From Escherichia coli (GTDB lineage Bacteria; Pseudomonadota; Gammaproteobacteria; Enterobacterales; Enterobacteriaceae), in assembly GCF_045037415.1 (NCBI RefSeq), contig NZ_CP173438.1: a DNA stretch of 64,000 nt; one strand, written 5' to 3'. Position 1 is the stretch's first letter. The number at the start of each line of letters is the position of its first letter. The translations under genes were made by a program, and so were the position numbers. This document shows, in pieces, positions 24,653 through 24,678 of the stretch. The notes beneath the pieces were generated by a model. The model searched no databases and was not told the origin of the DNA. It worked only from the letters and a program-made list of their open reading frames with translations.

Positions 24653-24678
24653 GGTTCATCGCTAATCTGCGATGAACC
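24653..24678. promoter_or_regulatory. 10-bp-arm inverted repeat upstream of DUF4259-like gene (operator or 5' UTR hairpin)
   Basis: ggttcatcgc-taatct-gcgatgaacc, perfect arms, 50-75 bp upstream of the minus-strand start codon. Confidence 0.4.

Follow-up and report, generated by a model that had tools for sequence, protein, structure and literature searches.

The 64,000-nucleotide stretch of Escherichia coli DNA analyzed here (the window) carries a perfect inverted repeat, IR-1, upstream of a gene for a DUF4259-like protein. IR-1 forms a stable stem-loop, resembles a terminator on one strand only, follows ascB in an older gene order, occurs in a single copy and is restricted to certain lineages. 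We interpret it, with moderate confidence, as an intrinsic-terminator-like insulator at the ascB 3' end that is largely a relic in the window strain; actual termination at IR-1 and the promoter positions given below are inferred from sequence. IR-1 would act as minus-strand RNA, in the sense orientation for both ascB and the DUF4259-like gene. RNA transcribed from further upstream would fold into a stem of 11–12 bp with a 6-nt loop, followed by UUUAUU. This hairpin would end the ascFB message and protect its 3' end, as well as shield the DUF4259-like gene from read-through, and the latter would depend on its own promoter, overlapping the hairpin or located just past it.

Genomic context

The main features of the window relevant to IR-1 are as follows.

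5843-5870: hairpin after an 853-aa mutS-like ORF, between two co-directional genes, with a TTATTATT-type, AT-rich tail like that of IR-1
up to 23420, plus strand: hycG, hycH and hycI
23445-23630, plus strand: 61-aa remnant of a 251-aa gene
23656-24075, plus strand: orphan higA antitoxin gene (139 aa, HTH_3 domain)
24167-24604, minus strand: DUF4259-like gene (145 aa)
24602-24619, minus strand: Shine-Dalgarno sequence AGGTAAGGA and ATG of the DUF4259-like gene
24635-24645, minus strand: two putative -10-like hexamers, AATAAT and TACTAT, read from the sequence just past the hairpin
24640-24652, minus strand: U-rich tract directly 3' of the IR-1 stem (TTTATTGAATAAT; T in 5 of the first 6 bases)
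24652-24679, minus strand: IR-1 hairpin (arms 24652-24662 and 24669-24679, 6-nt loop 24663-24668)
24681-24708, minus strand: promoter-like site P_up, TTGTCA-16 nt-TATTTT, directly upstream of IR-1
24719-24801, minus strand: right half of a REP element and the last ~80 bp of ascB (asc operon deletion stub)
from 24878: K-12-like ascG/hydN spacer
from 25032, plus strand: hydN, then hypF

The window belongs to a B2-type E. coli; it is 100% identical over 1.7 kb to strain 98194, and its haplotype also occurs in ST131 and other B2 strains. The hycI-hydN interval is an eroded, strain-variable chromosome segment. In the window strain, higA is an orphan because higB was deleted; a deletion took higB and most of the upstream 251-aa gene, which encodes a signal peptide. 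The higB gene is present in strains MS1737, Nissle, and E2348/69. The neighboring HigA-like protein recognized in the original prediction proved to be a true homologue of HigA, with an HTH_3 domain, 46% identity to the K-12 protein, and a match to PDB 5IFG (E = 2.5e-35). The name DUF4259 rests on a Pfam match below threshold (17.4 bits against a cut-off of 22.8), although RefSeq uses it for sister alleles. Three E. coli alleles scored 17.4–17.9 bits, over the N-terminal ~80 residues only and below this gathering cut-off, and "DUF4259-like" is the right wording for the gene at 24167-24604. PADLOC and NCBIfam scans of the neighboring proteins returned nothing informative.

Two further features were noted in this region. 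The spacer separating higA from the convergent DUF4259-like gene contains a perfect 8-bp repeat (AAGGGCGC/GCGCCCTT, 24126-24157) followed by GTTTGT; it adjoins a REP-like sequence (24096-24120) and is probably the shared terminator of both genes. This hairpin, located at the other end of the segment, is unrelated in sequence to IR-1, and a subterminal hairpin pair of the IS200/IS605 type was rejected on this ground. On the opposite side, the window differs from strain MS1737 (L002) by a 43-bp insertion/deletion flanked by CGATAAA direct repeats (24802-24877), at the junction of the ascB stub and the ascG 3' end.

Position and stability of the repeat

The repeat GGTTCATCGC-N6-GCGATGAACC lies exactly where it was predicted, at 24653-24678, and the loop reads TAATCT in plus-strand letters (GGTTCATCGC-TAATCT-GCGATGAACC). 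The arms extend 1 bp beyond the 10 bp originally noticed, giving 11 perfect pairs, AGGTTCATCGC/GCGATGAACCT, at 24652-24679. As minus-strand RNA, the element reads GAGGUUCAUCGC-AGAUUA-GCGAUGAACCUU. The 10-bp repeat is located upstream of the start codon, as proposed, at 49–74 nt from the minus-strand ATG (24604) of the ORF 24167-24604.

Perfect inverted repeats with arms of at least 10 bp and loops of 3–10 nt are rare: 10 (start, loop) combinations at five loci were found in the 64-kb window, compared to 0.75 ± 1.3 in 40 dinucleotide-preserving shuffles. The minus-strand RNA folds with an energy of -19.7 kcal/mol (z = -7.3; 0 of 200 shuffles as stable) and forms 12 pairs including a closing G.U; the plus-strand RNA is similar at -19.2 kcal/mol. 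The stem of 11–12 bp contains five G-C pairs and closes a 6-nt loop. IR-1 is far beyond chance and is a real feature. No Rfam 15 covariance model scored at or close to its gathering threshold; the sole hit, to a viral pseudoknot model (24573-24654, plus strand), overlaps IR-1 by three bases only and was at chance level, with 22.5 bits versus 60.

Terminator-like properties are limited to one strand

On the minus strand, the stem is immediately followed by the T-rich sequence at 24652-24640, so that the sense-strand RNA of ascB and the DUF4259-like gene reads stem and then UUUAUU. The plus strand continues as TCAAAATAC, without a T run, and a plus-strand terminator was therefore ruled out. The terminator look is limited to the minus strand, that is, the sense strand of ascB and the DUF4259-like gene, as judged from these flanking sequences.

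IR-1 has the kind of stem expected of an intrinsic terminator (a stable G+C-containing stem of 5–14 bp with a loop of 3–8 nt on the transcribed strand), as well as the expected position downstream of a same-strand stop codon, 65 nt past the ascB stop in assemblies L007–L010. The U-tract UUUAUUGAAU has T in 5 of 8 positions if counted from the 10-bp stem and in 4 of 8 after the 11-bp stem; it is short and interrupted after three U. A stricter terminator scan of the window did not list IR-1, which passed the T rule only with the stem counted as 10 bp. Its tail score, 3.7 from the 11-bp stem, is similar to those of other gene-end hairpins in the window, and its hairpin energy ranked 11th among all hairpin-plus-T-tail candidates of a permissive scan. 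The window's remaining perfect repeats with arms of 10 bp or more are located at gene 3' ends.

Older gene order and origin of the window layout

A rare layout found in draft E. coli assemblies L007–L010 has ascF, ascB, IR-1, and the DUF4259-like gene all on one strand, and the higA, higB, 251-aa, and hycI genes converge on this block. The ascB stop is followed by 65 nt, the hairpin, 47 nt, and the ATG (in L007 coordinates, with the last base of the stop codon at 2860, IR-1 at 2926-2953, and the ATG at 3001). With IR-1 only 65 nt past the stop codon of a co-directional gene, the element looks like an intergenic terminator or insulator and not like a leader attenuator of the DUF4259-like gene; there is also no upstream leader sequence to form an alternative structure with it. 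Of the two options of the original prediction, the stable coding-strand stem-loop with a T-rich stretch that stops transcription fits better than the HigA operator, with the correction that its position suggests an intergenic element and not a leader attenuator.

The window and the L007-type haplotype share an identical junction between the half-REP and the ascB 3' end, indicating that the window descends from the ascB-hairpin-DUF4259 layout; the comparison of sequences identifies the deletion of most of ascB, ascF, and ascG as the origin of its present arrangement. The ascB stub, 40 bp upstream of the hairpin, marks an earlier state in which ascB read into IR-1. Since only about 80 bp of ascB are left, no annotated gene is transcribed into IR-1 in the window, and the hairpin is largely a relic there. 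K-12-type genomes have a full REP pair after ascB, which is halved in the IR-1 layout; with the REP hairpin cut in half, IR-1 becomes the first stable hairpin after ascB in the older order. Because the junction with the ascB/REP side falls between this gene and the repeat, IR-1 is part of the DUF4259 segment and may not have arisen as an ascB terminator.

The IR-1 segment is absent from K-12. In K-12/DH1 (L018 560-640), the first and last few codons of the 251-aa gene are fused, forming a scar unlike that of the window; the K-12 hycI-ascB spacer is consequently a deletion product and not an empty site. The boundaries of the segment lie in REP elements, and the region is a hotspot of REP-bounded deletions.

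Natural variation of the stem

Four reliable IR-1 haplotypes were found (window, Nissle, L007, and L009 types), and the stem is intact as a hairpin in each. Nissle-type sequences differ from the window type outside the stem only. The L007 type has a C>T substitution in the 3' arm and A>C in the loop; in the L009 type, an additional A>G in the 3' arm was observed and the outermost A-T pair is lost. The C>T change occurs in L007, L008, and L010, and A>G additionally in L009. The sequence data relevant to covariation at IR-1 are limited to these two core-stem substitutions, which turn pairs of the sense RNA into G.U and U.G. The variants fold at -17.1 and -16.0 kcal/mol, the DNA palindrome falls to 9/10 and 8/10, and both changes would produce A.C mismatches on the antisense strand. 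Retention of pairing in the minus-strand RNA while the DNA symmetry breaks appears to favor an RNA role on that strand, with a chance p of about 0.25 for just two events.

A metagenome scan yielded 18 contigs, comprising the known haplotypes and three variant contigs, none with a core-stem substitution. Variants L030 and L033 have single-base indels at very low coverage, which we take to be errors; L028, whose coverage is not stated, has two substitutions outside the core stem.

Erosion of the region raises the question of whether IR-1 has any current function: it could be a leftover of the segment's history, for example an earlier terminator or a scar of recombination or insertion beside REP elements, that now drifts as the region decays. 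The higB, 251-aa, and asc genes have been deleted around it, and the segment boundaries lie in REP elements. The DUF4259-like gene is decaying in some lineages, with an in-frame 9-bp (YDN) duplication in the window allele and a premature stop at codon 100 in Nissle 1917 (L016 2615-3060), and the region has received IS and Mu insertions; in assembly L004, a Mu-like prophage is inserted at the 3' end of this gene. The stem is not significantly more conserved than its flanks (one change in 22 stem bases between the window and L007, 2.4 expected). Nevertheless, chance is a very unlikely explanation for the origin or persistence of a perfect 11-bp repeat, and IR-1 is intact in every reliable haplotype. 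We consider a complete lack of function unlikely.

Promoter-like sites and a possible role at the 5' end of the mRNA

The predicted start of P_up is near 24673-24674, inside the 5' arm of IR-1. Across the haplotypes, the site is conserved apart from a single base of the spacer, but promoter-like sites in the region occur at chance frequency (4 found, 3.7 expected). The second of the hexamers past the hairpin is TACTAT in the window, TATAAT in L007, and TACAAT in Nissle; no accompanying -35 element was found for the hexamers at 24635-24645. If P_up is real, transcripts starting there would be devoid of the full stem and would read through, while transcripts from upstream would be stopped. Should a working promoter overlap the hairpin, IR-1 would be a terminator with the start site of the next gene in its own 5' arm.

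The location of a promoter-like site directly upstream of IR-1 would also suit an operator or a 5'-terminal hairpin. 5'-Terminal hairpins are known mRNA stabilizers, for example, in the ompA leader. With a P_up start at or inside the 5' arm, the stem-loop could stabilize the DUF4259 mRNA against 5'-end-dependent decay or modulate it as a leader structure. The implied start would leave a 5–6 bp stem (CAUCGC/GCGAUG) without an unpaired 5' tail, and the hairpin is conserved across the four haplotypes. On the other hand, most of the 5' arm would not be transcribed from P_up, which would leave the long perfect stem unexplained, an alternative pairing partner for a switch is absent, and the fold of the whole leader is moderately better than shuffles (z = -3.3). 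The probability of such a role appears to be low.

The HigA operator hypothesis

The first choice of the original prediction was an operator for a dimeric HTH protein, possibly HigA. In a broader form, IR-1 would be a DNA operator for a dimeric repressor, the orphan HigA or another factor, that represses the DUF4259-like gene, with the palindrome spanning about -5 to +22 of P_up. Several properties are consistent with this: most haplotypes have a fully perfect palindrome of 11+11 bp, the palindrome abuts the conserved TTGTCA-16-TATTTT site, its inner ATCGC-N6-GCGAT is spaced by about one helical turn, and higA is intact in about 580 genomes despite the loss of higB. Moreover, upstream of the paralogue higB in K-12 there is an equally long and perfect palindrome, of 12+3+12 (CATCCGTTGCCA-ATC-TGGCAACGGATG), with a second, imperfect copy just downstream of it.

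The evidence against HigA concerns location, sequence, and geometry. IR-1 is outside the higBA promoter, upstream of a convergent gene and about 580 bp beyond the higA stop codon, whereas an antitoxin normally controls the operon that encodes it; the region with the higB promoter lies at another site and has been lost from the window strain. In the island higB upstream region, the best half-site match was 7/11, the most frequent value in 2000 shuffles, and this region contains only a 7+3+7 palindrome, GTTTACA-TAT-TGTGAAC. The IR-1 layout is 11+6+11, with the GTTCA/TGAAC ends 16 bp apart versus 7 bp in the higB palindrome. Elsewhere in the window, the half-site shows no enrichment (10 matches with up to one mismatch versus 5.7 expected), the P_up call is at chance frequency, and natural variants break the DNA symmetry while keeping RNA pairing. 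These comparisons lend no support to the HigA operator as first proposed, and HigA binding at IR-1 is unsupported as judged from sequence; an operator for any dimeric repressor is improbable. Still more improbable is the co-option of the orphan HigA as a transcription factor that would bind IR-1 across the P_up start and control the DUF4259-like gene. If true, a co-opted orphan antitoxin would be the only reading of wider interest, but nothing found supports it.

Operators of the LacI/AscG, CRP, FNR, LexA, and Fur types were rejected on inspection of spacing and core against their consensus sequences. An FhlA site was also rejected: IR-1 has TCATCG in common with another palindrome, IR-2, but is devoid of the TGTCG/TGACA core seen at 16080-16127. 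IR-2 (24897-24924) is a longer perfect palindrome, ATGTCATCGACACT/AGTGTCGATGACAT, followed by CGTTTTT; it lies in the K-12-like spacer shortly ahead of hydN, and a sigma-54-like TGGCAT-N5-TGTGA (24981-24996) follows about 70 bp further on. It contains TGTCGATGACA, resembling TGTCGAAAATGACA and GTCAAAAATGACA at 16080-16127 upstream of the hycB-like ORF. IR-2 may serve as the terminator of ascG, as an upstream activating site through which FhlA would act on hydN-hypF, or as both.

Distribution and homologues

Of 5426 complete E. coli genomes, 725 contain IR-1 together with the gene, once in each; the repeat itself occurs at 729 places in the 725 records, the extra ones being IS-split copies. No relative was found among GTDB species representatives by peptide-pattern and DNA-pattern scans, and IR-1 was not matched in plasmid and phage collections. 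A search of 1.84 billion representative proteins for the DUF4259-like protein returned only 16 relatives, the strong ones being mostly E. coli fragments; the family is extremely narrow. Divergent hits P0061, P0079, P0083, P0084, and P0088 were discarded because they proved to be E. coli copies, truncated or noisy, whose upstream DNA is identical. Literature searches on DUF4259, on higBA with hycI, and on start-site maps of uropathogenic strains gave nothing usable.

A full-length homologue with 62% identity is encoded in Listeria costaricensis (P0092/L006), and the sequence similarity suggests horizontal transfer between very distant hosts. There, a clear terminator of the upstream GH65 gene and then a TGTTATAAT promoter precede the homologue. 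Upstream of a 36%-identical homologue (L042), an 8-bp repeat, which could easily be due to chance, is followed by TGATAAAAT. By analogy, these distant homologues may weakly parallel the IR-1 arrangement.

In EPEC strain E2348/69 (L015 3560-5850), IR-1 is separated from the DUF4259-like gene by an IS200C element, which has entered between TTTATTG and ATTGAATAAT and is in turn split by ISEc13. The insertion lies 6–8 nt past the hairpin, and its tnpA is on the same strand, the orientation that the hairpin would shield. Terminator-like hairpins are reported to be strongly over-represented just upstream of IS200/IS605 elements (2026 preprint, bioRxiv 10.1101/2025.07.22.666184). The placement of IS200C fits this enrichment and may be taken as circumstantial support for a terminator-like hairpin.

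IR-1 is an ordinary kind of element whose importance hardly goes beyond annotation. A variable region of B2 E. coli (ST131, Nissle, and E2348/69 types) gains one terminator-like hairpin that had not been annotated, and the asc-less layout of these strains is shown to descend from the ascB-hairpin-DUF4259 layout.

Comparison with known systems

Stem-loops of the ompA type share with IR-1 a hairpin at or near the transcription start, which is predicted in the case of IR-1, but IR-1 would lose most of its stem when transcribed from the predicted promoter. The K-12 higB palindrome, the presumed HigA operator, is like IR-1 long, perfect, and located beside a promoter-like element, and a HigA with 46% identity is encoded alongside IR-1. 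However, the K-12 palindrome has another sequence and a spacer of 3 nt versus 6 nt, and IR-1 is not in the higBA promoter but upstream of a convergent non-TA gene and has no match to the island higB upstream region.

REP/BIME extragenic palindromes are also intergenic hairpins, and IR-1 adjoins REP sequences at a REP-bounded rearrangement site. REP/BIME elements are multi-copy and have a family consensus, whereas IR-1 is present in a single copy per genome and the REP consensus is absent from it.

Intrinsic terminators between co-directional E. coli genes differ from IR-1 in that its U-tract is broken after three U and its upstream gene is deleted in the window. The hairpin of this kind at 5843-5870 resembles IR-1 in its perfect 11-bp stem, short loop, and energy of about -18 to -20 kcal/mol. 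Both are located a few tens of nucleotides past a stop codon and ahead of the next same-strand gene, and both have an AT-rich, TTATT-type tail instead of a clean U run.
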